A stretch of DNA of 64,000 nucleotides from positions 184-64,183 of the forward strand of contig JARKNX010000025.1 in NCBI GenBank assembly GCA_029976025.1. The letters run 5' to 3'. The notes below the pieces were generated by a model, which had not been told where the DNA came from, did no database searches, and was given only the letters and a program-made list of their open reading frames with translations. Position 1 is the stretch's first letter; each line of letters opens with the position of its first letter. Source of the DNA: Aggregatilineales bacterium (GTDB lineage Bacteria > Chloroflexota > Anaerolineae > Aggregatilineales > Ch27). Made by a program: the position numbers and the translations under genes. This document shows, piece after piece, positions 30,929 to 54,121 of this stretch.

Positions 30929-30931
30929 GCA

Positions 30932-33622: not shown

Positions 33623-35506
33623 ATGAAGTACACACGGAGTTGGATTATCGCATTGACAGCTATTACCCTGCTGACTTCTCTCAGCGGGCTGGCTTCCGCA
33701 CAATCAAGCGACAATGTCCTGGCCGGGACAGGCTGGACTCTCACCGCCATCAATGGCCAGCCTCCCCTGGCCGGGACGATGGTCACTCTCAACTTCGATG
33801 CCGAAGGCCGGGTCAACGGGTCGGACGGCTGCAACAGCTACGCGACGAGCTACACCGTGGACGACACCAGCCTGACTTTTGGAGCGCAGATAATTTCGAC
33901 CATGATGGCCTGCCAGGACGCGGTTATGACCCAGGCCGGGACCTACCAGGCCGTCCTGCTGCAGACAGCCTCATTCCATAAGATCGGCGGGCAGCTCTTT
34001 CTGCTGGACGCTGACGGCGCGACCCTGCTGGTGTTCGCCCTGCAGGAAACCGACCTGGTCGGCACGCAGTGGGAAGTTATCAGCTACAACAACGGCCAGC
34101 AGGCTGTCGTCTCCACCCTGAGCGGCACTACGCTGACCGCTAACTTCGGCGCGGACGGCACGCTCTCCGGCATCGCCGGCTGCAACAACTATTTCGCCAG
34201 TTTTGAGAGCGATGGCAAATCGACGATCACGATCGGGCCAGCGGCAACTACACGCATGCTTTGCTCCGAGCCGGGAGGCGTGATGGAGCAGGAGGCCGCA
34301 TATCTGGCGGCGCTGGCGACAGCCGCCACCTACCAGATCACCGGCGACCAGTTGCACATGCGTACCGCCGATGACGCCCTGGCCGTCACCTTTGTCCGCG
34401 CCGCGACACCGGCTGACAATGACCAGCCGGCGGGCATCTTGCTCGATCCGCATGGCCTGGCCGAGACCTGGGAGGCTGTATCCGTTCCGGAGACCCCTTA
34501 CGACGCCAGCATGCCGCCTGGACCGACCGGGCTGCCGGCGCATACTCAGGTCCTGTTCGACATTTTCGATGCGGCTGCATGGCAGCCCGGCATGCCGATC
34601 ATGACGATCATCCCGGTGGACGCCTACCGCTCCATGTGGGATGAGAATAAGGATACCGCCGTCATTGTTGCCATCGGGCAGATTCACAACCTGATAGCGT
34701 CCATGCCATCCTCCGGCCCGATCAGCGGCGTGCCGGCCCTGCCCTACGAAATAACGGGGGGCGGCATCAACGACGCAGCGGCGCAGTTCAGCTTCGTCGC
34801 CGGGGCGGATACGAGCGCCAGCAAGGGCGGCTACCGGTTTGTTGGCCGCTGGACACAGGAACCGACCCCCATGACCAACCAGGGCCTGTTCTACGTCTAC
34901 CAGGGTTTCACCAATGACGGCAAATATCTGGTCTCGTTCTTCTATCCGGTGACCACCACCGCCCTGCCCGATTCTGTCGAACAGGTCTCAGCGGCGGACC
35001 TGGCCGCCGTGGAGGCCGATCCGGGGGCTTACCTCCAGGCGCAGGTTGCGATGCTGAACGCCCTGACGCCGGCGGACTGGACACCCAATCTGGACACGCT
35101 GGACGCGCTGGTCAGCTCGCTGCAGATCGAGGGCATGACCTCCTCCGGTTTGCTCAACCGGGCCTGGGCCTGGCTGGGCACCCGTCCCGGCGATAGCAAA
35201 ACCGTGACCCCGCTGGCCGATCCCCGCCTCTACGAGGTGACTTACAACTCCGACGGCACGCTGACCTTTGTGGCTGACTGCAACCGGGGCAACGGCACCT
35301 TCACGCTTCAGGGCGGCGTGACGGGCAGCCTGACCACTACGCTCGGCGCAACAACCCTGGCTATGTGCAACGATGGCGACCAGGGCCAGCAGTTCATGAA
35401 CGCTCTGGAGGCCGCGCAGAGCTTCCGCGTGCTGCCGGGCGGCAGCGTGCTTGAGCTTGTCCCGCCGGCAGGCGATGATATTCTCGTCTTCGTCAGCGGC
35501 GGCTAA
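33623..35506 (+). CDS. Secreted protein with three META (HslJ-like) domains
   Basis: 627 aa. Signal peptide MKYTRSWIIALTAITLLTSLSGLASAQ. META-like modules: WTLTAINGQP...GSDGCNSYATSY...TMMAC, WEVISYNNG...GIAGCNNYFASF...TRMLC, and C-terminal YEVTYNSDGTLTFVADCNRGNGTF...LAMC. AGGAG RBS. Confidence 0.8.
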   Translation: MKYTRSWIIALTAITLLTSLSGLASAQSSDNVLAGTGWTLTAINGQPPLAGTMVTLNFDAEGRVNGSDGCNSYATSYTVDDTSLTFGAQIISTMMACQDAVMTQAGTYQAVLLQTASFHKIGGQLFLLDADGATLLVFALQETDLVGTQWEVISYNNGQQAVVSTLSGTTLTANFGADGTLSGIAGCNNYFASFESDGKSTITIGPAATTRMLCSEPGGVMEQEAAYLAALATAATYQITGDQLHMRTADDALAVTFVRAATPADNDQPAGILLDPHGLAETWEAVSVPETPYDASMPPGPTGLPAHTQVLFDIFDAAAWQPGMPIMTIIPVDAYRSMWDENKDTAVIVAIGQIHNLIASMPSSGPISGVPALPYEITGGGINDAAAQFSFVAGADTSASKGGYRFVGRWTQEPTPMTNQGLFYVYQGFTNDGKYLVSFFYPVTTTALPDSVEQVSAADLAAVEADPGAYLQAQVAMLNALTPADWTPNLDTLDALVSSLQIEGMTSSGLLNRAWAWLGTRPGDSKTVTPLADPRLYEVTYNSDGTLTFVADCNRGNGTFTLQGGVTGSLTTTLGATTLAMCNDGDQGQQFMNALEAAQSFRVLPGGSVLELVPPAGDDILVFVSGG

Positions 35507-38985: not shown

Positions 38986-40062
38986 CTACCCGGCGTAGAA
39001 TCCGTATTCCTGCGCGGTCTCGTACAGCGCCAGGACATTCTCCACCGGCGTCTCGGCCAGGACGTAATCATGGCTGGGGCAGGCCACATAGCCGCCGCCC
39101 GGCATCATCAGATCGAGGATGCGGCGCGTCTCGGCCCGGGCCGCCTCCGGCGTGCCGTCGATGAGCAGCCGGGTATCGATACAGCCCATCAGCAGCAGAT
39201 CGCCCCCGAACCGCCGCTTGAGCGACGCCGGCTCCATATCGCGACAGCTCGGCTGGAGCGCCTGCAGGCCGTCCAGGCCGGCCTCGATCATGGCCGGGAT
39301 GAGCGGGGCGAAGCCGCCGCAGCAGTGCAGCAGCACGCGCAGGCCGTAGCTATGCCCCAGATCGATCAGGCGCTTGAGATGGGGCAGCACAAACCGGCGG
39401 AACTGCGCCTCGCCGATCAGCGGGCCATTAGTGGAGCCGAAGTCGTTGCCGATGAAGAAGATATCGATCAGGTCGGCGGCTTCGTCGAAGATACGCTGGC
39501 TGACGCCGGCGTAATAATCGACCAGATGCTCCAGCACGGCGTCCACCAGCGCCGGGACGTCGAACATCTTGAACATCAGGTTTTCCATGCCCAGCAGGTC
39601 GATGGCGTCATGCCAGAAGGGCGACCAGTCCCCGCCAAGGATGGCGTACTGCCCGCCATACTGTTCCGCCTCAGCCCGAATCTGGCTGACATCCATCCAG
39701 GCCGGGTCGGGCCAGGGGTAGGCTTCTACCTCGGCAACCGTCGTCGCGCCGATCAGCGGGTGCGACACCGGCTGCCCCCCTTCGTAGCCGTGTCGCAGGA
39801 TGCCGAACGGCGAACGAAAAGTTATGCCGGGGGGCAGGTTAGCGTACGGCGCGTATTCCTCCGGCCCGGCATAGACCGCCAGCACCCGCCGGAAGTCATC
39901 CCCCACCAGGCGCGACAGCGCCTCATCATCAGCCAGGCCTAACTGCCGCCGGGCGATCTCCCGGAAGGCCGGAGAAGCCCCCAGCCAGAGGGGGACGTGA
40001 TCCGGCTCCACATGGTTGAACGCCGCCAGCACCCGTTCTCGCGAGGTCATCCGCCTGTCCAC
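38986..40062 (-). CDS. Uroporphyrinogen-decarboxylase (URO-D/MtaA-like) family protein
   Basis: 358 aa. GTG start at 40062 preceded by GAAGGAGG. MTSRERVLAAFNHVEPDHVPLW and LHCCGGFAPLIPAMIEAGLDGLQ are typical of the URO-D fold family. The function in this context is unknown. Confidence 0.8.
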   Translation of the reverse strand: MDRRMTSRERVLAAFNHVEPDHVPLWLGASPAFREIARRQLGLADDEALSRLVGDDFRRVLAVYAGPEEYAPYANLPPGITFRSPFGILRHGYEGGQPVSHPLIGATTVAEVEAYPWPDPAWMDVSQIRAEAEQYGGQYAILGGDWSPFWHDAIDLLGMENLMFKMFDVPALVDAVLEHLVDYYAGVSQRIFDEAADLIDIFFIGNDFGSTNGPLIGEAQFRRFVLPHLKRLIDLGHSYGLRVLLHCCGGFAPLIPAMIEAGLDGLQALQPSCRDMEPASLKRRFGGDLLLMGCIDTRLLIDGTPEAARAETRRILDLMMPGGGYVACPSHDYVLAETPVENVLALYETAQEYGFYAG

Positions 40063-40159
40063 CGCCCACCTCCTTCGATCGCTGCTTTCTGTGTGTACTT
40101 TGACGTCAACACTCTATAATGGGGAGGACTGCCGCCTCAGCCTTCGTCAGGAGAGACGC

Positions 40160-40582
40160 ATGAACCTCTACTTCGCCGCATCCATCCGGGCCGGCCGGGA
40201 GCTTCAGCCGGTCTACACCGCTCTTGTCCGGCACCTGGTACAGGGCGGACACACCGTGCTAACCGAACACGTCGCCTCGCAAAACGTCGAAGCCGACGAA
40301 GGCGACATGACCGACCAGGAAATCTACACCCAGGATGTTGCCTTCCTGGATCGGAGCGATGCCGTCGTCGCCGAGGTGACTGTGCCCTCGCTGGGCGTCG
40401 GATACGAGATCGCCTACGCCCTGCATGTGCGACGCGCCCCGGTGCTGTGTCTGTGCCGGGCCGGCACACCCCTTTCGGCCATGCTGACCGGCAACACACA
40501 TCCCGGGCTGACGCTCGCCTTCTACCAGGATACCGCCGGCGCCCTGGCTGCGGTGGATCGGTTTACGCGCTCCCTGAGCTGA
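40160..40582 (+). CDS. DNPH1/RCL-like 2-deoxynucleoside 5-phosphate N-hydrolase (nucleoside 2-deoxyribosyltransferase fold)
   Basis: ORF 40016-40582. ATG 40160 follows AGGAGAGA. MNLYFAASIRAGRE...VLTEHVA...VVAEVTVPSLGVGYEIAYAL matches the DNPH1 hallmark motifs SIRGGRE, VLTEHVA and PSLGVGYE, recalled from the mammalian enzyme. Confidence 0.85.
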   Translation: MNLYFAASIRAGRELQPVYTALVRHLVQGGHTVLTEHVASQNVEADEGDMTDQEIYTQDVAFLDRSDAVVAEVTVPSLGVGYEIAYALHVRRAPVLCLCRAGTPLSAMLTGNTHPGLTLAFYQDTAGALAAVDRFTRSLS

Positions 40583-40724: not shown

Positions 40725-41945
40725 CTAGAACTCGCCCTGGGCCATCTTCTTCTGCATTTTGACCGGAGTGTTTTCCAGCAACCACGCCTCGGTGCGCGCC
40801 CTGATCTCCTCCGGTGTCTCCTGGTAGCCATACGTCTCCAGCAGCACCGGCGTCCACTTTTTGCCCCAGCGAATATGAAAATTCTCGTCGCTCCAGTCAT
40901 AGCTGACGGCGGCGGCGGAAATCTCGTCGTCGATCTGCTCCCAGTGCTCGCGGTTGGCCGCTTTCTCCGGCATGCCGTTCGGCTCGATGACAGTCGTCAG
41001 CAAAGCATACTGATCCACGGCGGGCAGGGTCATCATGACGTTGTAAATCTGGACGACCTGCGGCACGTCAGAAGGCTGGAGGCCGAGCTGCTCCACGCGG
41101 GTCTGACCAAGCTGGCTGTGGCGGATTTCGTCCCACTGATGGCGGGCCACATTGTGCTGGTACTCCCACGGCATCTCCGGCGTCATCCACAGGATGGAAG
41201 CCAGCGTCTCGGCGGCCGTCATCTCGTTGAGGTAGTGCTTGAAGCGCCACAGGCGGTACGCTTCCGGCTCACGCTCGCGGTCGGGCTGAATATCCTCATC
41301 CGGGTTGAAGATCGGCCAGCCGGGCATCCGCTGGCATTCCTTCCACGGCAGCAGCAGCGGGTGGCCTTCCGGACGGGCGGGTGCTTCCTCAGGCGGCGCT
41401 GTCCCGGTGACGCCGCCGTCCGCGGCCAGCAAGCCGGCGATATAGTCCCGCCACGCTTCCCAGCCCGGATAGCGCCCGGATACCTCCGGGAAGAATCCCT
41501 GCGCCCAGGCTACCTGCTTTTCCGTCAGGTCCAGCAGGCGCTCGCGGATGATCTTGACGGTGGGGTTATCGAAATCTTCCCATGTCCTTGTCGCGTGGGC
41601 GCGGTAGGCCTCCAGCAGGGCGGACTTGACGACCAGGTAGACGGTGGCGAGCACCTCGGCGGTATTCTGGGCGTAGTCAAGCTCCTGAATCAGCCGGCTC
41701 AGCCCCGGGCTGGCGTCGCGGTCAGGGTGGTAGGCGCGCAACTCGCGCAGGCGTCCGCGCAGAGCGTCAGAAGCATCGGCGCTCTCCCAGATGTGAAGCC
41801 CGATCAGGTTCTTGGCCTCCCATTCCGGTACGCCGGGCAGCCAGCCGGCCAGCGTGCGCATACAGGCGCGTTCGAGCACAGCATACCGCTTGAGGAGGGC
41901 GGTATTCTGTTCCAGTGTGAGGCGGGAGGCGGTCTTTCTGCTCAT
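40725..41945 (-). CDS. Ferritin-like diiron-carboxylate superfamily protein (function unknown)
   Basis: 406 aa with AGGAGA RBS. The C-terminal half carries E-x26-ExxH (MTAAE...WDEIRH) and E-x32-ExxH (IEP...DENFH) spacing, typical of diiron four-helix bundles. The overlapping plus-strand ORF 40689-41975 is Arg/Gly-rich and is rejected. Confidence 0.65.
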   Translation of the reverse strand: MSRKTASRLTLEQNTALLKRYAVLERACMRTLAGWLPGVPEWEAKNLIGLHIWESADASDALRGRLRELRAYHPDRDASPGLSRLIQELDYAQNTAEVLATVYLVVKSALLEAYRAHATRTWEDFDNPTVKIIRERLLDLTEKQVAWAQGFFPEVSGRYPGWEAWRDYIAGLLAADGGVTGTAPPEEAPARPEGHPLLLPWKECQRMPGWPIFNPDEDIQPDREREPEAYRLWRFKHYLNEMTAAETLASILWMTPEMPWEYQHNVARHQWDEIRHSQLGQTRVEQLGLQPSDVPQVVQIYNVMMTLPAVDQYALLTTVIEPNGMPEKAANREHWEQIDDEISAAAVSYDWSDENFHIRWGKKWTPVLLETYGYQETPEEIRARTEAWLLENTPVKMQKKMAQGEF

Positions 41946-41976
41946 CGGTTATCTCCTGCTAAAATGCTATTCTAAA

Positions 41977-41986
41977 GGTATAGACA
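41977..41986. promoter_or_regulatory. Operator-like box GGTATAGACA (reverse complement TGTCTATACC)
   Basis: Matches TGTATAGACA at 9/10. Lies downstream of the predicted minus-strand promoter and 32 nt upstream of the ferritin-like gene start. Confidence 0.55.
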
Positions 41987-42007
41987 ATTAACGGAATGAT
42001 CACAACA

Positions 42008-42036
42008 ACTGTAGCATATCTGACAATATCTATCAA
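42008..42036 (-). promoter_or_regulatory. Candidate promoter of the ferritin-like gene
   Basis: On the minus strand: TTGATA (42031-42036), a 17-nt spacer, then TACAGT (42008-42013). Confidence 0.45.
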
Positions 42037-42080
42037 CTTATTCTAATGTGAAGCCGCCCATCTGATTTTTAGATTGGACG

Positions 42081-42110
42081 TTGACGAAAGCAGGCAACCT
42101 GGCCCATAAT
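42081..42110 (+). promoter_or_regulatory. Sigma70-like promoter of the URO-D/GH38/ABC operon
   Basis: TTGACG (42081-42086), an 18-nt spacer, then CATAAT (42105-42110). Confidence 0.55.
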
Positions 42111-42115
42111 GAGAA

Positions 42116-42125
42116 TGTCTATACA
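42116..42125. promoter_or_regulatory. Operator box TGTCTATACA (within near-palindrome AATGTCTATACATT)
   Basis: Exact 10-mer located 5 nt downstream of the -10, covering the predicted transcription start. The 14-mer is palindromic at 6 of 7 pairs. Confidence 0.65.
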
Positions 42126-42147
42126 TTTTATGACGCTTCCTTCAGTT

Positions 42148-42158
42148 TGTCTATAACA
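42148..42158. promoter_or_regulatory. Operator-like box TGTCTATAACA
   Basis: A variant with one inserted A, located in the leader of the same operon. Confidence 0.4.
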
Positions 42159-42218
42159 GGGGTGGCGATCACAATAGCAGTCCTGGATCCGGTTTCTGCC
42201 TGACCAGTGGAGCGCCGT

Positions 42219-43373
42219 ATGCCTGACCTGATCGAGATCGCAGTATCAGTGGAAGAACTCGCCGCGCGGGAGGAGCGAGTCGCCAGAACCAAGCGCTTCG
42301 AAGAACCCGATCGCGTCCCCGTCATCCCGGCCATCGCCCACCGCTTCCTGGTTCCCCAGGTCGGGGTTCGCCTCCACGACTACTATGCCGACCCGGAAAC
42401 CATGCTGCGCACCCAGATCCTCGCCCAGAAGTGGCTGATGGAGAACATCCGCACCGACGCCCACAGCATCACCGGGGCCTGGGTCGGCGCGTGGACCGAC
42501 TTTCAGAATACCTTCGAGTCCGGCAGCCTGGGCTGCCGGGTTGTCTTCCCGGAAGACGACATCCCCTGGGTGAGCGAAATAGGATGGGTCAAAACGGATG
42601 AAGACCTGGCCCGGCTGGAGGCGATGGATTTCGTGAATGGCGAGATCAACGCCCGGCAGGTCGCCTACCGGCGAGCTATGATGCGCGTGGCCGAAAAATA
42701 CCCCGTGCGCTTCCTGGGCGGCGAAGTCTTTTACCCGGGCGCTAATCCCAATCTCACCCACACTTCCGACGGCGCCTTCGGCATCGCCGGCGATCTGATG
42801 GGCCAGACGGAGCTGTTCCTGGCCTGTTACGAGCGTCCGGACTTCGTGCGCGAGCTGCTGCGTATCATCACCGATAAGCTGATCGCCTACCTCGATTTCT
42901 GCTGGGAGGAGGAACAGCTCCCCCACCGGGATTTCGCCTGGACCGACGATCTGGCCGTCAATCTCTCCGCTGACATGTACCGCGATCTGGTCCTGGCGGA
43001 AGAAAAACGGCTCCGCTTTCATTTCGACGGCTGGCTATCCCTGCATATGTGCGGCAAGGCCGACCACCTGCTGGAAATCTTCCGCGACGACCTGCGCATT
43101 TGCGAGCTGCAGGGGTTTGGCTACCAGGTCGATCTGGATCACATCGCCGCCGTCATGGGCGGGAAGGTCGTCCTGATTGGGAATATTGATCCGATGCTGA
43201 TCTATAGAGGCACGCCGGAGCAGGTCCGCGAAGCCACGCGGATCGCCATCGAGAAGCTGGCCCCTTACCGGGGCTACATCGTCCAGGACGGCAGCAACAT
43301 CCCGCCGGGGACGCCGGTGGAAAATATCAATGCGCTGACAGAGGCCGCAGAGCTTTACGGCCGCTACCGGTGA
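42219..43373 (+). CDS. Uroporphyrinogen-decarboxylase (URO-D/MtaA-like) family protein, second copy
   Basis: ORF from 42207. ATG 42219 lies 6 nt after GGAG. Motifs RFEEPDRVPVIPAI, LSLHMCGKADHLLEIF and GYIVQDGSNIPPGTPVENI. Confidence 0.8.
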   Translation: MPDLIEIAVSVEELAAREERVARTKRFEEPDRVPVIPAIAHRFLVPQVGVRLHDYYADPETMLRTQILAQKWLMENIRTDAHSITGAWVGAWTDFQNTFESGSLGCRVVFPEDDIPWVSEIGWVKTDEDLARLEAMDFVNGEINARQVAYRRAMMRVAEKYPVRFLGGEVFYPGANPNLTHTSDGAFGIAGDLMGQTELFLACYERPDFVRELLRIITDKLIAYLDFCWEEEQLPHRDFAWTDDLAVNLSADMYRDLVLAEEKRLRFHFDGWLSLHMCGKADHLLEIFRDDLRICELQGFGYQVDLDHIAAVMGGKVVLIGNIDPMLIYRGTPEQVREATRIAIEKLAPYRGYIVQDGSNIPPGTPVENINALTEAAELYGRYR

Positions 43374-43474
43374 TGGGCACTGCGCCCTGACCCGCTGCAA
43401 GACATCACCTGGCCCCGCCTGCCTTGAGGCTCGCCACGTCGCTGGCCTCACCTGAACAGGGAGGAAAAACCGTT

Positions 43475-46249
43475 ATGTCCGTCCGTTATCATGTTACGGT
43501 TGTGCCGCACACTCACTGGGATCGCGCCTGGTATGTCACCTTTCAGGAGTACCGCATCCGCCTGGTGCGTCTGATCGATCGTCTGATCGATCTGCTCGAC
43601 CGCGACCCGGACTATTCTTTTTATATGCTGGATGGGCAGACCTCCCTGCTGGAGGATTACCTCGAAGTGCGCCCGGAACGGGCGGCTGTCTTGCAGGCGC
43701 TGGCGCGCAGCGGGCGGATCAGCGTGGGGCCGTGGTATGTGCTGCCGGACGAATTTCTGGTCAGTCCGGAAGCGCTGATCCGCAATCTGATGCTCGGCCA
43801 CCGGATGGGGGCGGACTACGGCGGGGTGATGAAAGCTGGCTATGTGCCCGACGGCTTCGGCCATATCGCCCAGATCCCGCAAATCTTCAACGGCTTCGGG
43901 ATCGACTCCGCTTTCTTCTGGCGCGGCGTCGGCGCCGAGGCGGACGAGATCGGCACAGATTTCGAGTGGGAGAGCAAGGACGGCTCCCGGGTGCTGGCGA
44001 TCTGGATGCCGTGGGGGTATCACAATCTGTCCAACGTGGGCTTCCCTATTCGGTGGGGCGACACGTCGCAGATGGAGTTCGACTGGGACCTGGCTCTGGA
44101 GCAGATACGCGGCGCGCTGGAAGAGGTGGAAACGCTCTCCAACACCGATGCCCGCCTGCTCATGAACGGCATCGACCACGCCGAGGCGGAGCCGCGCCTG
44201 CCGGAGTTGCTGCGGCGGGCTAACCAGGCCTTCCCGGAAGCGAACTTCCGCATTGGCACGCTTCTCGATCATCTGAAGAACGTCCGCGCCGCGGGCAAAG
44301 CGCTGCCTGTCTTCAGCGGTGAGTTCCGCTGGGGCCGCTACTCCGAAGTTCTGCAAGGGGTTTATTCCACACGGCTCTACCTCAAACAGCGCAATCATCA
44401 GGTTGAGACGCTGCTGGAACGCTACACCGAGCCGCTGACGGCCTTCGCCTGGCTGGCCGGCGGAGACCCCCCTGAAGGCACGCCGGACCTGGTGTGGACG
44501 GCCTGGCGGTGGCTGCTCAAGAATCACCCGCACGACGACATTTATGGCAGCGGCATCGACCAGGTGCATCACGAAATGCTGTACCGCTTCGATCAGGCTG
44601 AGCAGATCGGGCAGTACCTGGTCCGCGATAGCCTGCGCCTGATCGCCCGGCAGGCCGATTTCACCGGGCAGACGGGCACGCCGGTCCTGGTCTACAATCC
44701 GTTGAGCTGGCCGCGGCAGGAAATCGCCACCGGAGAGATCGACTTCGATTTTGACGATCCGACCGCCGAAAATTTCGTGCTGACCGACAGCGCCGGGAAC
44801 GAGCTGCCCTGCCACATTCTGGGCAGCGAAGAACGCACCTGGCTGGAGACGCTGAAGCCCAATCGCAAGCGCGTCGTCACGGTGGCCTTCCCGGTCTCAG
44901 TCCCGGCCTGCGGATACACGACCGTCTACGCCCGCCCGGGCCAGGCTAACCGCGCCCTGACCGGCGCAGGCAGCCTGCTGGTATCCTCCAACGGCGCTGA
45001 AAATGATTACCTGTCCTTCACTATCGCCCCCGATGGCGCGCTGACTGTTACCGACAAGATCACCGGCAGCATCTACCCCGACCTGCACACTTTTGTTGAT
45101 GTGGACGACGCCGGCGACGAATACAGCTCCTGCCCCTGCCCGGCCAGCCAGACGTTCAACTCCAGCGGAGGCGTGGCCGACATCCAACTGCTGACGGCGG
45201 GGCCAGTCCTGGCGCAGTTCCGCGTATCTCTGGCGCTGCAAATCCCGGCCAGCCTGACCGAAGATCGCCAGCGCCGGGCGGAGCAACTGGTCACTTTGCC
45301 GATCGTGTCCACGCTGACACTGTACCGGGGCCAGCCGGGACTTTACATCAGAACCCGGGTTGAAAATACTGCCCGCGACCACAAGCTGACGGTGAGCTTC
45401 CCCACCCCTCTGACGCCCAACTGCGCTCACGTAGACGCGGCCTTTCAGGTCAGCGCCCGCACCATCAGCCTGCCGCCGTCGGACGGCTGGGTGGAAGACC
45501 CGACGCCGCTGATGCACCAGCGCGCCTTCACGGATCTCAGCGATGGCGCGCGCGGGCTGGCTGTGCTCAACCGGGGCCTGCCCTCGGTGGAGGTGGAACA
45601 GATCGACAGCGGCACGCGCATCGCCCTGACTCTGCTGCGCAGCGTCGGCTGGTTGTCGCGCGATGATCTGAGCAACCGGCATGTAGCCGCCGGGCCATTG
45701 CTGGCGGCCCCCGGCGCTCAGTGCCCCGGCCCACATACCTTCGAATACACCATCCTGCCCCACGCCGGGACCTGGGAGCAGGTTTACCGGACAGCCGCGA
45801 ACTACCTGGCCCCGCTGCTCATCGCCCGGGCCGACACGCATGAGGGGATGGAGCTGCGCGAGATGCCCTTCATCGGCGTCGAGCTGGACTGGTACAACCA
45901 GGTGGTCAAACCGCTCGCCTGGCCGCGCGGGGGGCCGAACCCCGATACGCTCAGCTTCCTGACTCTGGAGCCGGAAACGCTGGTGCTCAGCGCGGTGCGG
46001 CGTAGCGCCGATGGAGCGGGGCTGATCGTCCGCTTCTACAACCCGGGCGAGGCAACTGTCCAGGCCCGGCTGCAAAGCTGGCGGCCGCTGAAGGCTGCCT
46101 ACCGCCTCAATCTCAACGAAGAGCGGCAGGGAGAAATCGCTCTGGCAGAATCCGGCCATCAGTCGCCCGGCGGAGGAGCCGCTGGCGTGGTTATCCCGGT
46201 GCGCGGGGGGCAACTGGTGACCGTTGAGCTGCGCCCACAGACTCCCTGA
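43475..46249 (+). CDS. GH38 alpha-mannosidase (cytoplasmic)
   Basis: ORF from 43424. ATG 43475 follows GGGAGGAAAAA. MSVRYHVTVVPHTHWDRAWY and GYVPDGFGH are GH38 N-terminal hallmarks. About 925 aa. Confidence 0.92.
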   Translation: MSVRYHVTVVPHTHWDRAWYVTFQEYRIRLVRLIDRLIDLLDRDPDYSFYMLDGQTSLLEDYLEVRPERAAVLQALARSGRISVGPWYVLPDEFLVSPEALIRNLMLGHRMGADYGGVMKAGYVPDGFGHIAQIPQIFNGFGIDSAFFWRGVGAEADEIGTDFEWESKDGSRVLAIWMPWGYHNLSNVGFPIRWGDTSQMEFDWDLALEQIRGALEEVETLSNTDARLLMNGIDHAEAEPRLPELLRRANQAFPEANFRIGTLLDHLKNVRAAGKALPVFSGEFRWGRYSEVLQGVYSTRLYLKQRNHQVETLLERYTEPLTAFAWLAGGDPPEGTPDLVWTAWRWLLKNHPHDDIYGSGIDQVHHEMLYRFDQAEQIGQYLVRDSLRLIARQADFTGQTGTPVLVYNPLSWPRQEIATGEIDFDFDDPTAENFVLTDSAGNELPCHILGSEERTWLETLKPNRKRVVTVAFPVSVPACGYTTVYARPGQANRALTGAGSLLVSSNGAENDYLSFTIAPDGALTVTDKITGSIYPDLHTFVDVDDAGDEYSSCPCPASQTFNSSGGVADIQLLTAGPVLAQFRVSLALQIPASLTEDRQRRAEQLVTLPIVSTLTLYRGQPGLYIRTRVENTARDHKLTVSFPTPLTPNCAHVDAAFQVSARTISLPPSDGWVEDPTPLMHQRAFTDLSDGARGLAVLNRGLPSVEVEQIDSGTRIALTLLRSVGWLSRDDLSNRHVAAGPLLAAPGAQCPGPHTFEYTILPHAGTWEQVYRTAANYLAPLLIARADTHEGMELREMPFIGVELDWYNQVVKPLAWPRGGPNPDTLSFLTLEPETLVLSAVRRSADGAGLIVRFYNPGEATVQARLQSWRPLKAAYRLNLNEERQGEIALAESGHQSPGGGAAGVVIPVRGGQLVTVELRPQTP

Positions 46250-46361
46250 CAGCGCCGTGGTGTCCGCACGAAAGGAGGTGCGCTCCGACCCTGGCTGGTT
46301 CGTCCGATGAAGCTGTACCCAAGAGGCTGCATAAGAGATCTGTTGCATTGGAGGAGTGAAA

Positions 46362-47621
46362 ATGTCTGAACAAATGTCACGCCGCAATTTCCTGAAGTCG
46401 AGCGCCGCCGCGGCAGCGCTGGCCGCCGCTCCAAAGATGCGGGGGCCGTGGGTGATCAACCGTCGCCGTCAGAATACCGTGGTGCTCAGAATCCAGGCCT
46501 TCGCTCATGAGGCTATCCAGGCGGTGCTGCCCCCCTTCCAGGAGTCAACCGGCCTGACCGTACAGTTGGATACCGGCCCGTCTTCCGGCGTGGAGCATCT
46601 GACCGAAGCGACCACTGCCTACGCCGCCGGCGACAGCCCCTGGGACGTGGTCAGCGATTCGGATGAAGGCGCCCCGGTTGAGGCGCGCGCCGGCTGGCTG
46701 GAGCCGCTTGATGGCGTGATCCCGCAGGAAACCTGGGACGACTTCCCCCAGGGCATGAGGGACGCCTTCCCCGTCTGGTATGGCTACGATGGCGCTATGT
46801 ATCGCGTGCCGCACGAGTTCGCCGTAGGCTACTACTTCTACCGCAAGGACCTGATCGGCGAAGCCCCCAAGACCTGGGAAGAAGTGATTGAGAAGGGTCT
46901 GGAAGTCACTGACTCCGCCAATAACGTCTGGGCGACGGCTGACGGCCTGACCAAGGGCGCGTTGATGTTCGTCTACCTGGCTTACCTGACCAGCCAGACC
47001 GGCGGCGATATCTTCGCCATGGACGATGGCCTGGCCAATGCGGCGCGCCTGCTGTACGAGATGATCAACACGTACAAGATCATGCCGCAGGACGTCATCA
47101 ACATGAACTACGACCAGCAGAACGAGCTGTATATGGACGACAAGGTCATGTTCATGCGCCAGTGGCCGTTCTTCCAGAGCGTGGCCGAAGGCAACGCCGC
47201 CTGGTACAGCCCGGACAAGGTCGCCATCGCCCTGCCGCCGGCTGGCCCGATGGGCGGTGGAAGCTGGTGGGGCGGCTGGGGCTTCACCATCCCCAAACTG
47301 GCCCCCAACATGGACGGCGCCAAGGCCCTGATCGCCTACCTGACCTCTAACGAGGTCGCCCCGCAGTTGGCCGCCGGGCAAAGCTGGTTCGTCATGCCGC
47401 GTACTTCTATCCTGAATGCGATGGCTGGCACCGGCAACCCGATTGTGGATGCGATGGGCATGTACGCCGACGCCGGCGTGATCAGGCCGCGCCCGTTCCA
47501 CCCGCGGGCCGCCGAGGCCCAGATCGCGGTTGAAGACGCGATCTCCCTCTACATCACCAAGCAGGCTACCCTGCAAGAAGCGCTCCAGACCGGCAAGGAC
47601 TTGCTGGCCGCTCTGGAATAG
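46362..47621 (+). CDS. ABC transporter substrate-binding protein (family 1) with Tat-type leader
   Basis: GGAGGAG lies 5 nt upstream of ATG 46362. Leader MSEQMSRRNFLKSSAAAAALAAAP. Confidence 0.88.
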   Translation: MSEQMSRRNFLKSSAAAAALAAAPKMRGPWVINRRRQNTVVLRIQAFAHEAIQAVLPPFQESTGLTVQLDTGPSSGVEHLTEATTAYAAGDSPWDVVSDSDEGAPVEARAGWLEPLDGVIPQETWDDFPQGMRDAFPVWYGYDGAMYRVPHEFAVGYYFYRKDLIGEAPKTWEEVIEKGLEVTDSANNVWATADGLTKGALMFVYLAYLTSQTGGDIFAMDDGLANAARLLYEMINTYKIMPQDVINMNYDQQNELYMDDKVMFMRQWPFFQSVAEGNAAWYSPDKVAIALPPAGPMGGGSWWGGWGFTIPKLAPNMDGAKALIAYLTSNEVAPQLAAGQSWFVMPRTSILNAMAGTGNPIVDAMGMYADAGVIRPRPFHPRAAEAQIAVEDAISLYITKQATLQEALQTGKDLLAALE

Positions 47622-47632
47622 TTTGTTCCATC

Positions 47633-47678
47633 CCCCTCTCCCGGCGCATTCTGCTGCTTCACTGCCCCGGGAGAGGGG
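47633..47678 (+). promoter_or_regulatory. Intercistronic stem-loop after the SBP gene
   Basis: CCCCTCTCCCGG (47633-47644) pairs with CCGGGAGAGGGG (47667-47678) in a perfect 12-bp stem with a 22-nt loop, followed by CTTTCCCTTGTT. Confidence 0.55.
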
Positions 47679-47716
47679 CTTTCCCTTGTTGATCTGCGAT
47701 TCAGAAGGAGTACGGC

Positions 47717-48643
47717 GTGGTCGCCAACGTCAGTCCCCCACAGGCCGTGACACGGGCCAGATCCCCTCAGCTTACCCTGAACCAGCGACGCTACCTGGCG
47801 GCAGCCCTGCTGCTGGCACCGGTCATTCTGCTGCGTCTGTTCACCACCTTATATCCGTTCCTACAGACGATAGTGCTCAGCTTTCATGAATACAACCCCG
47901 CCTTCACCCCCCGCACCTATGTCGGGCTGGAGAACTTTGAGAAGATCGCGGCGGATATCGTGGTCAAGAGCAGTATCGAATTTACGCTGATCTTCGTCTT
48001 CGGTTCGACATTCTTCCAGCTCTTCTTCGGCGTGATGGTCGCTTCCCTGCTGAACAGCCGGCTGCGGATACCGAACTTCATCCGCACCATCAACCTGATT
48101 CCCTGGGCTATCCCCATGGTTGTGGCGGCGGTCGGCTGGCGCTGGATGTTCGACGGCAACTATGGCTGGATCGTCGATCTGCTGCGGCGCATCGGCCTGC
48201 AGATCAACTGGCTGACCGATCCGGCCAGCGCGCGGGTCGCGATCCTGATCGTCGCCATCTGGAAGAGCACGCCTTTCGTCGCCGTGTCCATCCTGGCCGG
48301 CTTGCAGGGCGTCCCGGAGGAATTATACGAAGCGGCCAAGGTGGATGGCGCCAACGCCTGGCAGTCCTTCTGGGGGATCACGCTGCCTCTGATCATGCCC
48401 CTGATGGTGACCATTGGCATGTTCATGCTGGTCTGGCAACTGGCCGTCTTCGACCTGCCCTATACCATGACCGCTGGCGGCCCCGGCTTCGCTACCAGCG
48501 TGCTGGCCTACCAGGTGCAGCAAAAAGTGGTCACGTTGAACTACGGCTACGCTTCAGCAATCAGCGTCATCATGTTCCTGATCGTCGGCCTGATCGGCGC
48601 CCTCGGGCTGGCCGCTTTCCGCCGCGTCCAGGTTTCGATGTAA
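47717..48643 (+). CDS. ABC sugar permease (MalF type)
   Basis: GTG start after GAAGGAG. EAA loop YEAAKVDGANAWQSFWGITLPLI. Confidence 0.9.
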   Translation: MVANVSPPQAVTRARSPQLTLNQRRYLAAALLLAPVILLRLFTTLYPFLQTIVLSFHEYNPAFTPRTYVGLENFEKIAADIVVKSSIEFTLIFVFGSTFFQLFFGVMVASLLNSRLRIPNFIRTINLIPWAIPMVVAAVGWRWMFDGNYGWIVDLLRRIGLQINWLTDPASARVAILIVAIWKSTPFVAVSILAGLQGVPEELYEAAKVDGANAWQSFWGITLPLIMPLMVTIGMFMLVWQLAVFDLPYTMTAGGPGFATSVLAYQVQQKVVTLNYGYASAISVIMFLIVGLIGALGLAAFRRVQVSM

Positions 48644-48662
48644 GCAGGGAGGAAAACACGTT

Positions 48663-49508
48663 ATGCGCGCATTTCTACGACAGCACAACGGGCGAATCAC
48701 GACTTATGTGGGCTTCATCATATTCGCCATCATCGTGCTCTTTCCTTTCTACTTCATCGTCATCTCGTCTGTCACACCGCGCTACCAGATTTTCCAGATC
48801 CCGCCACGCTACTTCCCCGAGACGCTGACGCTGGAAAACTACCCCGCCATGATGAACGCCATACCGTTCTGGCAGTTCTATCTGAACTCCCTGATCTTCG
48901 CCCTGGGCAGCACGATCACATCGGTGCTGTTCAGCGCCATGGCCGGGTACGCCCTGGCGCGGCTGAAGTTCCCCGGCAGCAACCTGGTCTTCCTGGGGTT
49001 GATTCTTTCTATCGCCCTGCCGCAGGTCGCGCTGCTGGTGCCAATCCGGGAGATTTACAACGCTCTGCACCTGAACAACACCTACTTCGGGCTGATCGTC
49101 CTGATGTCCAGCCTGGTCACGCCTTTCACCGTCTGGATCATGGTGTCATTCGTGCACCAGATTCCGGTCGAGATCGAGGAAGCGGCGCTTATTGATGGGG
49201 CGACAATCTGGCAGACGATTCTGCGCATCGTGCTGCCGACGATGCGGCCGGCCATCGCCACGATGCTGATCATCAACTTCATCATTAGCTGGAATGAGCT
49301 GCTCTACCCGCTGATCTTCGCCACTCGCAATGACACCAAGACGCTGAGCGTTGGCCTGATCTCGCTGGGCCGGGAGGCTATGGGGACTTCCCGCCCCTGG
49401 GACCTGATGAGCGCGATGAGCGTGCTGACTATCGTGCCGGTCATCGTCCTCGTCATCTTCGGACAGCGCGCCATCGTCTCCGGCCTGACGCGCGGCGCAG
49501 TCAAATAA
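48663..49508 (+). CDS. ABC sugar permease (MalG type)
   Basis: 281 aa with AGGGAGGAAAA RBS. EAA loop IEEAALIDGATIWQTILRIVLP. Confidence 0.9.
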   Translation: MRAFLRQHNGRITTYVGFIIFAIIVLFPFYFIVISSVTPRYQIFQIPPRYFPETLTLENYPAMMNAIPFWQFYLNSLIFALGSTITSVLFSAMAGYALARLKFPGSNLVFLGLILSIALPQVALLVPIREIYNALHLNNTYFGLIVLMSSLVTPFTVWIMVSFVHQIPVEIEEAALIDGATIWQTILRIVLPTMRPAIATMLIINFIISWNELLYPLIFATRNDTKTLSVGLISLGREAMGTSRPWDLMSAMSVLTIVPVIVLVIFGQRAIVSGLTRGAVK

Positions 49509-49535: not shown

Positions 49536-50669
49536 CTATTCTCCGCTGCCCGGGCGGCCGTTCATCGCCTGGATCGGGCCGCCGCTCGACCGGCGGATGA
49601 CCAGCCGCGTCGGCAGGATGACCCGCTGCCAGTCCGGCGCATCGCCGTTAATGCGGCGCCAGAGCACCTCCACGGCCACCCGGCCAATATCGAAAGTCGG
49701 CTGGGCCACCGTGGTCAGGGGCACATCCAGGTGAGAAGTGAAATCGAGGTTGTCAAAACCGACCAGGGCCAGATCATCCGGGACGTCGATCTTCAACCGT
49801 CGCGCGGCCCGGTAAACGGCCAGTGCGATCTGATCGTTAGCGGCGAAGATGGCCGTAGGGCGCGGCGAGCGGGAGAAGAAGCCGAATAACTGCTCCGGCT
49901 CGACAGAAGGATAAGCCTCCACCTCGAACGCCAGCGACCTGTCATCAGGCAGGCCCGCTTCGATAAGCGCCTGGCGATAACCGGCGAAGCGGTGCTCAAT
50001 GCTGATAGCCGGATCGCGCCAGGACACGAACCCGATCCGGCGGTGCCCCAGGCTGATCAGGTGCTGTGTAGCCTGCAGCGCGCCGCCGAAATGGTCGGAC
50101 ATCACATAATCCGAGGGGACGCCGCGCAGGTAGCGATCGATCAGGACAACCGGATAGCCGGCGCGTGTCAGGTGAACAATGGCGTTCGCATTGATCGAGT
50201 CCACGGGGTAGACGACGATGCCGGCCACGCCGCCCTGAGCGGCCAGAGAATCCAGCACCTCCGTCTGCTGCTGGGGATCATTGTTGACATGCTTGAACGT
50301 GATCGAAAGGCCGCGCTCAGAAGCGCCGCGCTCCACGCCCAGCAAGATCGTGGAGACGAAGGAATCGCGGACATAGGGCACGACAAAGCCGATTTGTCGG
50401 GTTTGCGCCTCCCGGACGGGGGGGCGGATGCCCGTCCAGTCCACAAAGGTCCCCCGGCCGCGCTCCCGCCGGATATAGCCTTCCTGTTCCAGTTTGCTCA
50501 GAGACTGGCGGAGCGTGCCGCGCGCCACGCCGAACTCGCGGCAAAGCTCCGGTTCCGGAGGCAGGCTTTCGCCGGGCTTCCATTCTCCGCTCAGGATGCG
50601 CTGGGTCAGGATAGCGCTGATCTGCACATACAGAGGGACGCCATCGCCATGCTTTAACGAAATGCTCAT
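49536..50669 (-). CDS. AraR-type regulator: GntR winged-HTH fused to a LacI/PBP1 sugar-binding domain
   Basis: 377 aa. N-terminus LPPEPELCREFGVARGTLRQSLSKLEQEGYIRRERGRGTFV (GntR HTH). C-terminal motifs IGFVVPY, GIVVYPVD, VVLIDRY, PTAIFAANDQIALAV and LVGFDN (LacI-type effector domain). Confidence 0.88.
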   Translation of the reverse strand: MSISLKHGDGVPLYVQISAILTQRILSGEWKPGESLPPEPELCREFGVARGTLRQSLSKLEQEGYIRRERGRGTFVDWTGIRPPVREAQTRQIGFVVPYVRDSFVSTILLGVERGASERGLSITFKHVNNDPQQQTEVLDSLAAQGGVAGIVVYPVDSINANAIVHLTRAGYPVVLIDRYLRGVPSDYVMSDHFGGALQATQHLISLGHRRIGFVSWRDPAISIEHRFAGYRQALIEAGLPDDRSLAFEVEAYPSVEPEQLFGFFSRSPRPTAIFAANDQIALAVYRAARRLKIDVPDDLALVGFDNLDFTSHLDVPLTTVAQPTFDIGRVAVEVLWRRINGDAPDWQRVILPTRLVIRRSSGGPIQAMNGRPGSGE

Positions 50670-50716: not shown

Positions 50717-50726
50717 TGTCTATACA
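50717..50726. promoter_or_regulatory. Operator box TGTCTATACA at the regulator gene promoter
   Basis: Exact 10-mer located 5 nt downstream, in the minus sense, of the predicted -10 of the regulator gene. This is consistent with autoregulation. Confidence 0.65.
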
Positions 50727-50731: not shown

Positions 50732-50760
50732 ATTATCTAACACTCCTGACCGGAAGTCAA
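50732..50760 (-). promoter_or_regulatory. Candidate promoter of the AraR-type regulator gene
   Basis: On the minus strand: TTGACT (50755-50760), a 17-nt spacer, then GATAAT (50732-50737). Confidence 0.5.
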
Positions 50761-50766: not shown

Positions 50767-50795
50767 TTGACGCGCCTCGGAATACACTTTATAGT
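50767..50795 (+). promoter_or_regulatory. Sigma70-like promoter of the 50922-onward operon
   Basis: TTGACG (50767-50772), a 17-nt spacer, then TATAGT (50790-50795). Confidence 0.55.
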
Positions 50796-50809: not shown

Positions 50810-50819
50810 TGTATAGACA
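50810..50819. promoter_or_regulatory. Operator box TGTATAGACA (reverse complement of TGTCTATACA)
   Basis: Exact 10-mer located 14 nt downstream of the -10 at 50790-50795. Confidence 0.65.
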
Positions 50820-50921
50820 AACATATTCTGCATGTACAGACGAAGTCTGGTGAACACCCTGACGTCGCAAAATCATATTGACCTCGCCCGCCGCACAGGC
50901 CCTCGAGAAGGATAACGAGGA

Positions 50922-52517
50922 ATGCATATCTACAGCTTTGATTTTCGCGACCCGGCATTTATACTCGACAGGTGGAACCTGTCCTTTCAGATCATCACCC
51001 TGGAGAACGTCTACGGTCTGGACCCCGCCCACACCACCGTCGAGGAAAACGCTGGCGGGTGGGACCTGCACTGCACTGCGTTGCGATGGGCCGGGCAGCA
51101 GCGGACAGCGCCGGGCACCTGCGAAGTGCGGGCGCGGCGCGATGGCGAGGGACGCCTGCGGCTGTCCGTCCGTGCGACTGCCCCGCATAAAATCCGGGTG
51201 GTGAAGGTCATCCTGCGCGATCTCCCCCCGCTGGCTATGCTGGACATGCTGGATGAGGCGCACGATATTCCTGCGGAAGGCGTAGTGGAGCTATACCCCA
51301 ACCGCCTGCGCCTGCCAGTGTGTTTTCTGCGCCCGCCCGATGCCGCCACGATCGGCCTGCGCAGCGAGGACCTGTCCTTTCGCAGCAAGCGCTTCGCCAT
51401 CTACCAGGAGCGCTTCGGGCCATTCGCCGATCGGTACGCCGTCGAATGTATCCATGAGGAGGATGCTCGCTGGTTCGACCGGCAGATCGAAGTCCCGGAC
51501 TGGGTGCTGGCGCAGCCGGCGGCTGTTGAGGCCTTCCGGGATGAGCAGCTTGCCTTTTATGAGCACAATGCCGGGCTGGCGCGCTGGGAGGCGCGGCGCG
51601 ATACGCCCGACTGGGCGCGCGATATCCGCCTGTGCCTGATCCTGCACGGGATGCACTGGTCCGGATATACCTTCAATACGTACAGCCGGATGCTGGAGAC
51701 TATCCGCTATGCGGCAGCGCGCATCGACGGGCGCCGTATTCTGGCTTACCTGCCCGGCTGGGAAGGGCGCTACTACTGGCAGTACGGCGACTACCGACCC
51801 GAGCCGATGCTGGGCGGGGAGGAAGGCTTCCGGCAGTTATGCGACGAGGCCAGGGCGCTCGGCGTCCATGTGATGCCGATGTTCGGCGTGAACTGCGTCA
51901 ACGCCTGGGCTCCTAATTTCCACGAATTTGGCCCCTCCTCTTACATGAAATCGGCCACCCGCAATATCTTCCTGGGCAACCAGCCGGACTGGGATATGGC
52001 CCGGGCGGGGGATACCGGCTGGCAGGCCTGGCTCAACCCCGGCGCCCCGGCCTGGCAGACTGAGCTGACGCGCCAGATTCTGACCCTGGTCGATCGTTTT
52101 GGCTTCGACGGGGTCTTTCTGGATACCGCCGAAGTGCGGACTAACGATCCTGACTTCAATGTTCGCGAGGGCCTGCAGCAGATCATGGGCCGGCTGCGGC
52201 AGGATCATCCCGACCTGCTGGTGACGGCGGAGGACTGGTGGGATGGCCTGCTGAGCATCTTCCCCATCTTTCAGCAGACCTCAAAATGGCGGCAGGTGCC
52301 CCCCTGGGTAGGGCGTTACGCGCGCCTGATCGGCCATATCTGCGACGGCGACCCGGGCCGGAACAGCACGGGCGTATTCGAATCCGGCTACAGCCCGTAC
52401 TATCGCCTGCCGGACACAGAAACTTATATTGCCAGCCTGGCTTTTGTAGAAGATACGCTGGAGAAAGCGCAGTCAGAGATAGATGCTGTCATCGCCCTGG
52501 CGGCAGCGCGTTCGTGA
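50922..52517 (+). CDS. Uncharacterised protein, putative (beta/alpha)8 glycoside-hydrolase-like fold
   Basis: 531 aa. I recognise no family signature. The alternating pattern LILHGMHWSGY, LAYLPGWEG, VHVMPMFG, FDGVFLDTAEV and LLVTAEDWWDG resembles strand-end motifs of TIM-barrel glycosidases. First gene downstream of the operator-bearing promoter. Confidence 0.7.
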   Translation: MHIYSFDFRDPAFILDRWNLSFQIITLENVYGLDPAHTTVEENAGGWDLHCTALRWAGQQRTAPGTCEVRARRDGEGRLRLSVRATAPHKIRVVKVILRDLPPLAMLDMLDEAHDIPAEGVVELYPNRLRLPVCFLRPPDAATIGLRSEDLSFRSKRFAIYQERFGPFADRYAVECIHEEDARWFDRQIEVPDWVLAQPAAVEAFRDEQLAFYEHNAGLARWEARRDTPDWARDIRLCLILHGMHWSGYTFNTYSRMLETIRYAAARIDGRRILAYLPGWEGRYYWQYGDYRPEPMLGGEEGFRQLCDEARALGVHVMPMFGVNCVNAWAPNFHEFGPSSYMKSATRNIFLGNQPDWDMARAGDTGWQAWLNPGAPAWQTELTRQILTLVDRFGFDGVFLDTAEVRTNDPDFNVREGLQQIMGRLRQDHPDLLVTAEDWWDGLLSIFPIFQQTSKWRQVPPWVGRYARLIGHICDGDPGRNSTGVFESGYSPYYRLPDTETYIASLAFVEDTLEKAQSEIDAVIALAAARS

Positions 52518-52649
52518 TAGACAGGGAAGAAACAGCAAGAAAGGAGAGGGCCAGACACCTTTGAAGGCACGTTTCAGCAGATCGTCACGCAGATGTCTCG
52601 CTGACGAACATACCCGTATAGTTACTTAGAACTCCTTTCAGGAGGAACC

Positions 52650-54029: not shown

Positions 54030-54065
54030 CGTTACGCGGCTGGCGGACAGCCAGCAACAAGTGCA

Positions 54066-54091
54066 GCCAGGGATGGCGAACCATCCCTGGC
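54066..54091 (+). promoter_or_regulatory. Intercistronic stem-loop after the SBP gene
   Basis: GCCAGGGATGG-cgaa-CCATCCCTGGC forms a perfect 11-bp stem with a GNRA-like loop, followed by TTGCCGCTTTC. Confidence 0.6.
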
Positions 54092-54121
54092 TTGCCGCTT
54101 TCAACAGGAGAAGGAACGCCC

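Follow-up and report, generated by a model that had tools for sequence, protein, structure and literature searches.

Local, autoregulated sugar repressors whose palindromic operators lie at the transcription start are a textbook arrangement, and both the box signatures of GntR regulators and the chimeric proteins of the AraR type are already well described. In this paper we examine a 64,000-nucleotide stretch of the genome of an Aggregatilineales bacterium (Chloroflexota, Anaerolineae; contig JARKNX010000025.1), referred to throughout as the window, in which a short box, TGTCTATACA, is repeated between divergent genes, together with a GntR-type regulator encoded at 49536-50669 that may bind it. 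Operators of the GntR family follow the consensus NyGTNxACNy, which in the HutC subfamily takes the form GTMTAKAC, and auxiliary half-boxes have been described beside the palindromes bound by GntR factors (PMC4494728). Members of the AraR subfamily are chimeras of a GntR winged helix and a GalR/LacI-type sugar domain (PMC1950556, PMC4494728). In Bacillus subtilis, the ara boxes (ORA1/ORA2, ORE1/ORE2 and ORR3) have the 16-bp consensus ATTTGTACGTACAAAT with a central CG, of which G9 is essential (PMC1950556); residue H42 of AraR reads the central G via a water molecule, and altered half-site spacing is tolerated at ORR3 (PMC3592433). The dre sites of DasR/NagR have two consecutive guanines (GGT), read by two arginines; in NagR, the outer of the two is read by Arg38 (PMC4333415).

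We consider it quite probable that the repeated boxes are operators of the protein encoded at 49536-50669 (minus strand), acting as a repressor that would place its own gene and two or three neighbouring mannosidase/transporter operons under sugar control. This candidate regulator has 377 residues and joins a GntR winged helix (PF00392, residues 13-76) to a LacI-type periplasmic-binding-protein sugar domain (PF00532 and PF13377, residues 91-362; Peripla_BP_1/3/4 at the C-terminus). An earlier note on this DNA had named it as the only GntR-type regulator of the window; Pfam scans of all called genes of the window agree, and found no other recognisable transcription factor among them.

Three boxes lie in the region 41946-42218, between the divergent genes for a ferritin-like DUF455 protein (40725-41945, minus strand; PF04305, 40.5 bits) and for a URO-D protein (start codon ATG at 42219), and they are where the earlier note had placed them. 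The note had described this region as AT-rich and 260 bp long; AT-rich it is (42.9% GC against 62.7% in the window), while its length is 273 bp. Boxes were scored with a palindromised 18-bp matrix built from 19 boxes in six foreign loci, with no window sequence used (palindromised counts: M = A18/C18, K = G18/T18). With this matrix from foreign genomes, the best match of the whole window is box O1 (42116-42125, plus strand; 19.9 bits), an exact copy of TGTCTATACA set inside AATGTCTATACATT. Box O-D (41977-41986, minus strand; 14.4 bits) is TGTCTATACC, a 9/10 copy of TGTCTATACA that reads GGTATAGACA on the plus strand; weak minus-strand promoter candidates precede it, and the start codon of DUF455 (41945) follows 31 nt further downstream. 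The third box, O2' (42148-42158, plus strand), is the 11-nt variant TGTCTATAACA, which scores 2.0 bits ungapped, with a perfect left half-site, a right half displaced by 1 nt and a centre 32.5 bp from that of O1. A repeat finder that had not been supplied with the motif recovered all three, reporting the direct repeat TGTCTATA at 42116/42148 and the inverted repeat AAAGGTATAGACA/TGTCTATACATTT. As the earlier note had also proposed, the exact box follows a promoter: the sigma-70-like promoter of the URO-D/GH38/ATP-binding cassette (ABC) operon is TTGACG-18-CATAAT (42081-42110, plus strand; 10/12 match), one of five promoter-like sites found by a promoter scan of the region against 0.5 expected. 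Its -10 hexamer ends 5 nt before O1, so that the box covers the predicted transcription start, which is the classical position for a repressor.

Two further exact copies of TGTCTATACA, which the earlier note had overlooked, lie at 50717-50726 and 50810-50819 in the 252-bp region between the regulator gene and a second, divergent operon (operon 2). Box O-R (50717-50726, plus strand; 19.6 bits) sits 47 nt upstream of the regulator ATG and 5 nt past the -10 of the predicted regulator promoter (TTGACT-17-GATAAT, 50732-50760, read on the minus strand from 50760 to 50732). This geometry matches that at 42116, and the position of the box suggests that the regulator controls its own synthesis. Box O-2a (50810-50819, minus strand; 9.1 bits) lies 14 nt past the -10 of the operon 2 promoter (TTGACG-17-TATAGT, 50767-50795, plus strand), and a weak box, CGTCTGTACA (50833-50842, minus strand; 4.0 bits), lies 23 bp from O-2a and is a candidate auxiliary site. 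Within the window, the centres of the boxes are 32.5, 139, 93 and 23 bp apart.

With at most one mismatch, TGTCTATACA occurs six times in the window where 0.77 occurrences are expected, and none of 100 shuffles reached six. In the matrix scan the four best window matches, at 42116 (19.9 bits), 50717 (19.6 bits), 19425 (16.9 bits) and 41977 (14.4 bits), are all intergenic. At 14 bits or more there are four sites in 5.2 kb of intergenic DNA, against 0.009 expected from a first-order Markov simulation of each intergenic segment, and none in the 58.6 kb of coding DNA of the window; the equal frequency inside genes that the earlier note had named as evidence against its proposal is therefore not seen within the window. 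That the boxes resemble each other by chance in AT-rich DNA, or that they generally mark transcription-start regions in this organism and have no dedicated protein, strikes us as exceedingly improbable. The regions are indeed AT-rich (43-53% GC against 62.7%), and exact 10-mer counts alone are uninformative, since several unrelated AT-poor 10-mers, and many GC-poor coding ones, also occur three times in the window. The simulations, however, were matched for composition; other strong promoters, such as that of the arabinan operon (~983-1016), have no box; and the boxes are palindromic, occur in both orientations and persist at orthologous promoters although the flanks there have diverged.

The consensus of the box is the quasi-palindrome (A/T)TGT(C/A)TA(T/G)ACA(A/T). 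All full boxes read (A/T)(T/G)GT-N4-AC(A/C)(A/T), with the cores GTCTATAC (42117, 50718), GTATAGAC (41978, 50811) and GTCTAGAC (19426), and all half-sites are TGT except one in the box at 41977. These inverted GT...AC pairs with A/T-rich flanks match NyGTNxACNy, as the earlier note had said of the TGT-N4-ACA outline, and with 4 nt between GT and AC they match the HutC core GTMTAKAC exactly. Some further candidates are not claimed as boxes. TGTCTGAACA at 46363-46372 (12.8 bits) overlaps a start codon, that of the solute-binding protein SBP1, and has a poor centre, with G at an invariant A; the half-sites ATAGACA at 52517-52523 and 57063-57069 lie in operon-internal gaps, with no partner and no conservation evidence; and TGCCTGTACA at 38898 lies between convergent genes.

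In related genomes the box keeps company with the regulator. Loci with regulator homologues (L001 and so on) were taken from one genome per species, and the close ones (47-66% identity) are all metagenome-assembled genomes of Anaerolineae or other Chloroflexota. In shuffled orders and orientations, the regulator is linked there to homologues of GH38, SBP1 and its permeases, DUF455, URO-D, DUF6259, a second solute-binding protein (SBP2) and its permeases, a 772-residue protein and GH2, and in about 15 other Anaerolineae/Chloroflexota loci the orthologous regulators have the box upstream of themselves and of target-gene homologues. The regulator orthologue has it immediately upstream in L001, L002, L005, L007, L008, L009, L014, L015, L016, L022, L082 and L084, and so do the DUF455 homologues, at varying distance, in L005, L009, L011 and L015. 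The closest relative, L082 (69% identity), has the gene order of the window; there, one box directly adjoins the -10 hexamer from which the regulator is transcribed, and the URO-D gene is preceded by two. Over 19 loci (331 kb), 37 sites reach 11 bits or more. No more than 350 nt separate 31 of them from a regulator or cluster-gene homologue downstream, although such upstream zones account for only 9.9% of the sequence (binomial p about 1e-25). Of the six others, four also precede regulator or GH38 copies, which the identity/coverage filter had excluded.

A second explanation is that the boxes serve another HutC-type GntR regulator encoded outside the window, for example a global one that is NagR/DasR-like and has a dre-like motif, while the local protein binds elsewhere. 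The boxes fit the generic HutC form GTMTAKAC, distant loci show the dre-like core GGTCTAGACC (PMC4494728, PMC4333415), and the view is limited to 64 kb of the genome. We nevertheless think it unlikely. Although gene order is shuffled, the box stays with a regulator of AraR architecture in about 15 loci, and it stands in that regulator's own promoter; no other conserved palindrome was seen in these promoter regions; a residue of the local protein varies in step with the outer base of the box; and the winged helix of the local regulator is itself HutC-like, so that the local regulator would be expected to read a HutC-type motif.

In sequence searches of the PDB, the winged helix of the regulator matched NagR/YvoA best (1e-13, 54 bits), against 3e-8 and 37 bits for AraR. 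Its N-terminal domain is 45% identical to that of NagR and 35% to that of AraR; the AraR and NagR N-terminal sequences used for these figures agree with the residue numbering of PMC3592433 and PMC4333415. For the C-terminal domain the best matches were the LacI, RbsR and CcpA cores (LacI-like, 148 bits), against 101 bits for AraR (3TB6). Six residues, E39, R50, T52, R54, G71 and G73, are invariant across 25 regulator homologues and align with E30, R41, T43, R45, G62 and G64 of AraR; R48 and G69 of NagR also align. The protein accordingly has the conserved recognition-helix Arg, the supporting Glu/Arg and the wing Gly of a GntR reading head.

With B. subtilis AraR the regulator shares the architecture of a GntR winged helix on a LacI/GalR-type sugar domain (PMC1950556). 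The ara box and the window box are both 16-bp A/T-flanked palindromes with TGT...ACA arms, and the spacing from recognised G to C is 6 bp, as in ORA1 (PMC3592433). Autoregulation, predicted here, is a feature of both systems, as is the presence of several boxes per promoter at 2-3 helical turns, which in AraR leads to cooperative binding and looping and may do so here. The centre of the window box, however, is CTAT, ATAG, CTAG or ATAT, that is (C/A)TA(T/G), and not ACGT; no window box has a central CG, and the G9 of AraR is absent. Residues H42, Q61 and K4 of AraR are replaced by Gly51, Arg70 and Leu13, and neither domain has AraR as its closest characterised relative. The AraR regulon serves the utilisation of arabinose or arabinan, with L-arabinose as its inducer; the conserved regulon here consists of GH38, DUF455, URO-D and ABC genes and not of arabinose genes, and the arabinan operon of the window has no box. 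The earlier note had likened the boxes to those of AraR: the arms, the spacing and the protein architecture bear this out, and the missing central CG and a winged helix nearer to NagR do not. Judged from sequence, the regulator is AraR-like in architecture and predicted mode of action, and is neither an AraR orthologue nor a reader of ara boxes.

Homologues of the regulator are annotated "arabinose operon repressor" by the Joint Genome Institute (JGI). For this clade the label is probably wrong, because the arabinan operon (genes 1305-9153; GH51, GH43) has a near-consensus promoter (TTGACA...TATAAT, ~983-1016) at which the matrix scan found no box of at least 5 bits. The homologues track GH38, DUF455 and URO-D genes.

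The resemblance to NagR/DasR is closest in the DNA-reading part. The core GT-M-TA-K-AC of the dre sites (core GGTCTAGACC) is matched by all full window boxes (PMC4494728), and in NagR the half-sites are likewise 6 nt apart and the native sites imperfect palindromes (PMC4333415); NagR is also the best PDB match to the winged helix. Unlike HutC proteins, the window regulator has a LacI-type effector domain and not the UTRA/chorismate-lyase fold, and it differs from NagR in having Pro40 for R38 and in the T, where dre sites have the G of GGT, at the outer position of the box.

This outer position varies among the relatives. The equivalent of NagR R38, which follows the invariant Glu, is Pro in the window regulator (Pro40) and in L001-L004, L014, L082, L084 and L086, and Lys in a sister clade (L006, L007, L009-L012, L015, L022). 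In the Pro clade none of 22 autoregulatory half-sites has an outer G, against 10 of 12 in the Lys clade (GGT...ACC, for example GGTATAGACC and GGTCTAGACC). Phylogeny confounds the comparison, and the co-variation, which holds for autoregulatory boxes only, is to be taken as a lead and not as a result.

In the window and 17 loci together, 46 sites score 9 bits or more. At 17 of them the -10 of a sigma-70-like promoter ends 4-6 nt before the box, which is true of just 0.6% of all intergenic positions; at a distance of 0-15 nt the figures are 27 of the 46 and 3.1%; the 4-6 nt geometry recurs in L001, L003, L004, L005 and others. Together with the box in the regulator's own promoter, the conservation of the box at orthologue loci and the GT-N4-AC form, this geometry argues that the earlier note was right in linking GntR-type operators to the protein at 49536-50669.

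A further box, overlooked by the earlier note, points to a third target region. The perfect palindrome TGTCTAGACA (19425-19434; 16.9 bits) lies upstream of a third ABC-transporter operon (SBP3), 21 bp upstream of the -35 of its promoter (TTGACA-17-TATAGT, 19404 to 19376, minus strand; 11/12 match). Weaker boxes are TGTATAGATG (19361-19370, minus strand; 7.3 bits), 5 nt past the -10 of this promoter, and TGTATGCACA (19307-19316, plus strand; 9.2 bits) in the leader. In an SBP3 orthologue, L088, a TTGACC-17-TATAGT promoter is followed, 6 nt past its -10, by TGTATAGATC and then, about 55 bp beyond that, by another box, TGTACAAACA, a placement equivalent to that of 19307-19316; similar boxes are present in L089 and L090, and metagenomic SBP3 orthologues (67-78% identity) retain TGTATAGA(T/C)N boxes upstream. 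Since boxes are kept upstream of its orthologues, the SBP3 operon is a probable member of the regulon, although it could instead be controlled by a paralogue with a related motif. The SBP3 leader runs for about 300 nt (19068-19404) from the predicted promoter to the start codon at 19067 and contains a perfect 9-bp hairpin (19273-19281/19293-19301) with no Rfam match. No RNA family was detected when the entire window was scanned against Rfam, which means that the leaders do not belong to any known riboswitch class.

The palindrome at 19425, being upstream of a -35, is in a position compatible with activation, and the regulator might then be an activator or dual regulator, or the variant at 42148 might mainly be the -35 of a minus-strand promoter. 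The promoter scan did report a 10/12 minus-strand promoter, TAGACA-17-TAAAAT (42153 to 42125), made from boxes O2' and O1; it is reported because the half-site TAGACA is identical at five of six positions to the -35 consensus TTGACA, and operators of this box family can resemble -35 elements. Yet most strong boxes lie 4-6 nt past a -10 or in a leader, a typical repressor position, and the characterised relatives, AraR and the HutC-type NagR, act as repressors (PMC1950556, PMC4333415). We therefore give activation, or a mainly promoter role for O2', very little chance, and repression by the local protein is retained as the preferred reading.

Under that reading O2' is a probable auxiliary or low-affinity box. 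Its 11-nt form is plausible because AraR accepts altered half-site spacing at ORR3, and we read it as more than noise on the strength of the auxiliary half-boxes and spacing variants documented for GntR factors and AraR (PMC4494728, PMC3592433) and of three further features. In L002, the URO-D homologue is served by a pair of full boxes separated by 34 bp, compared with the 32.5 bp between O1 and O2'; the reverse complement of the O2' 11-mer, TGTTATAGACA, lies 21 bp from a primary box in L011; and ATAGACA half-boxes lie 20-22 bp from the primary boxes of L001, L002 and L005, with an analogous one in the window, at 50833, 23 bp from O-2a.

The genes behind these boxes form two main operons and the divergent DUF455 gene. 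Operon 1 (42219-49508, plus strand), syntenic with regulator homologues, encodes a URO-D/MtaA-like protein (42219-43373), a GH38 alpha-mannosidase (43424-46249), the solute-binding protein SBP1 with a twin-arginine (TAT) signal (46362-47621) and two ABC permeases (47717-49508). Operon 2 (50922-63999, plus strand) encodes DUF6259/GHL10, a solute-binding protein, two permeases (one of 664 residues), the 772-residue protein, GH2 and GH35, the last extending beyond the window end; its homologues adjoin the regulator in L001, L002, L011 and L014. DUF455 homologues, 73-78% identical and regulator-linked in 11 loci, are the best-conserved proteins of the cluster. NCBIfam gave no equivalog for any regulon protein: the nearest model to GH38 is the mannosylglycerate hydrolase MngB (515 bits, under the 1138 cut-off), and the URO-D proteins are nearest to the MtaA/CmuA methyltransferases, also under cut-off. 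A PDB sequence search found no relative of DUF455 and, for the 772-residue protein, weak spermidine-synthase-like matches only. Literature searches on DUF455, on GH38 with URO-D and on Chloroflexi GntR regulons returned nothing relevant.

Several observations on these genes may be recorded here. The 772-residue protein (57082-59400) has no significant family match and a weak spermidine-synthase/S-adenosylmethionine (SAM)-methyltransferase-like core at about residues 290-430; homologues 59-62% identical stand beside GH2 in L001, L002 and L014. In the 664-residue permease (55015-57009) the transporter domain covers residues 481-653 only, after an N-terminal extension of about 470 residues, and homologues of about 660 residues occur in L001, L002, L011, L013, L014, L084 and L086. 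DUF455 and URO-D/MtaA-like genes (40725-43373 in the window) are closely linked to GH38 and the regulator in L001, L002, L005-L011, L022 and L084, and L084 has a single operon (5209-10624) with two DUF455 genes, one 2Fe-2S ferredoxin gene and two URO-D genes. The DUF455/ferredoxin/URO-D set suggests, on gene content, a redox or demethylation step in a mannoside pathway. A second URO-D/MtaA-like paralogue (38986-40062) lies within 4 kb of the copy at 42219-43373 and is grouped with a nucleoside 2-deoxyribosyltransferase-like gene (40016-40582); a homologue of the paralogue at 38986-40062 also adjoins DUF455 in L002.

A GH38 enzyme under a GntR-family regulator has a precedent in Escherichia coli, where FarR, since renamed MngR, controls mngAB, including the gene for the GH38 alpha-mannosidase MngB. 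MngR is likewise a GntR-family (HutC) repressor, but its effector domain is HutC-type, and uptake there is by a phosphotransferase system (PTS) where the window has ABC transporters. It binds direct repeats of TGTATTAWTT (PMC4494728), in contrast to the palindromic box of the window.

The mechanism that we propose is as follows. The regulator is predicted to be a dimer that would place one winged helix on each GT/AC half-site, with Arg50, the counterpart of R41 in AraR and of R48 in NagR, contacting the half-site guanine, and the Gly71 wing in the A/T-rich flank. Free of sugar, it would occupy boxes that cover or closely follow the transcription start and so repress its own gene via 50717-50726, the URO-D/GH38/ABC operon via 42116-42125, aided by the variant at 42148-42158, the divergent DUF455 gene via 41977-41986, and the DUF6259...GH2/GH35 operon via 50810-50819 plus 50833-50842. 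The SBP3 operon would be a probable fifth unit, via 19425-19434, 19361-19370 and 19307-19316. Binding of sugar to the C-terminal domain would lower the affinity for DNA and induce the regulon. The effector would probably be mannose, or else some mannoside that the regulon imports or sets free, a suggestion drawn from the presence of GH38 only.

Several points weigh against this reading. The third copy (42148-42158) reaches only 2 bits without a gap, the minus-strand DUF455 promoter is weak (9/12), and O-2a (50810) owes its low score to poor flanks. Lys-clade boxes that are not autoregulatory mostly keep the outer T, which makes the co-variation with the Pro/Lys residue partial. The compared loci are from related organisms and are not independent, and the location count also takes in some of the sites that trained the matrix; the p-values are thus too favourable and indicative only. 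The whole case is one from sequence, with 64 kb of the genome in view, so that a second regulator of the same specificity and further regulon members are possible elsewhere.

Elsewhere in the window, the arabinan-utilisation operon (930-9153) encodes a binding protein, permeases, GH51 and GH43-AbfB, plus a convergent GH43, with no regulator gene nearby. A plus-strand sugar operon (24344-33301) combines a binding protein, two permeases, GH4, a PfkB kinase, a radical-SAM activase and a pyruvate formate-lyase (PFL)-like glycyl radical enzyme (Pfam E = 4.5e-228); for a carbohydrate locus this combination is unusual. A protein with a retroviral-type aspartyl-protease domain (gag-asp_proteas) and a three-META-domain protein (9340-10161 and 33623-35506) also lie among the sugar operons.

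As a mechanism, this is a standard local repressor-operator system, and its interest lies mainly in the conserved enzyme set and in a HutC-like head on a LacI-type body. Full-text literature searches, with RegPrecise outside their scope, found no description of the regulator clade, its box or its regulon. We put forward, tentatively and as a possibility only, that this Chloroflexota clade represents a fusion of a HutC-like head and a LacI-type sensor, perhaps made independently of Firmicute AraR, with a conserved regulon for an undescribed sugar pathway other than that of arabinose. If so, the pathway would join GH38, the very highly conserved ferritin-like DUF455, accompanied in some genomes by a ferredoxin, and the MtaA-like enzymes of the URO-D type. 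Possibly a modified mannoside would be taken up and then processed by oxidation or demethylation, and the sensor domain would respond to a new effector; the Pro or Lys after the invariant Glu would be a simple switch between T and G at the outer box base. Pro against Lys at the NagR R38 position, set against T or G in the box, offers a natural experiment on GntR specificity. The analysis also corrects the likely mis-annotation, as arabinose operon repressors, of homologues that track GH38, DUF455 and URO-D. For an uncultured Anaerolineae lineage the analysis gives a testable regulon, made up of a single regulator, the 16-bp consensus of its predicted operator, box positions at four or five promoters and the genes that these would control, and it flags a conserved set of uncharacterised enzymes as one sugar-controlled unit, which is usually the first step towards assigning their function.

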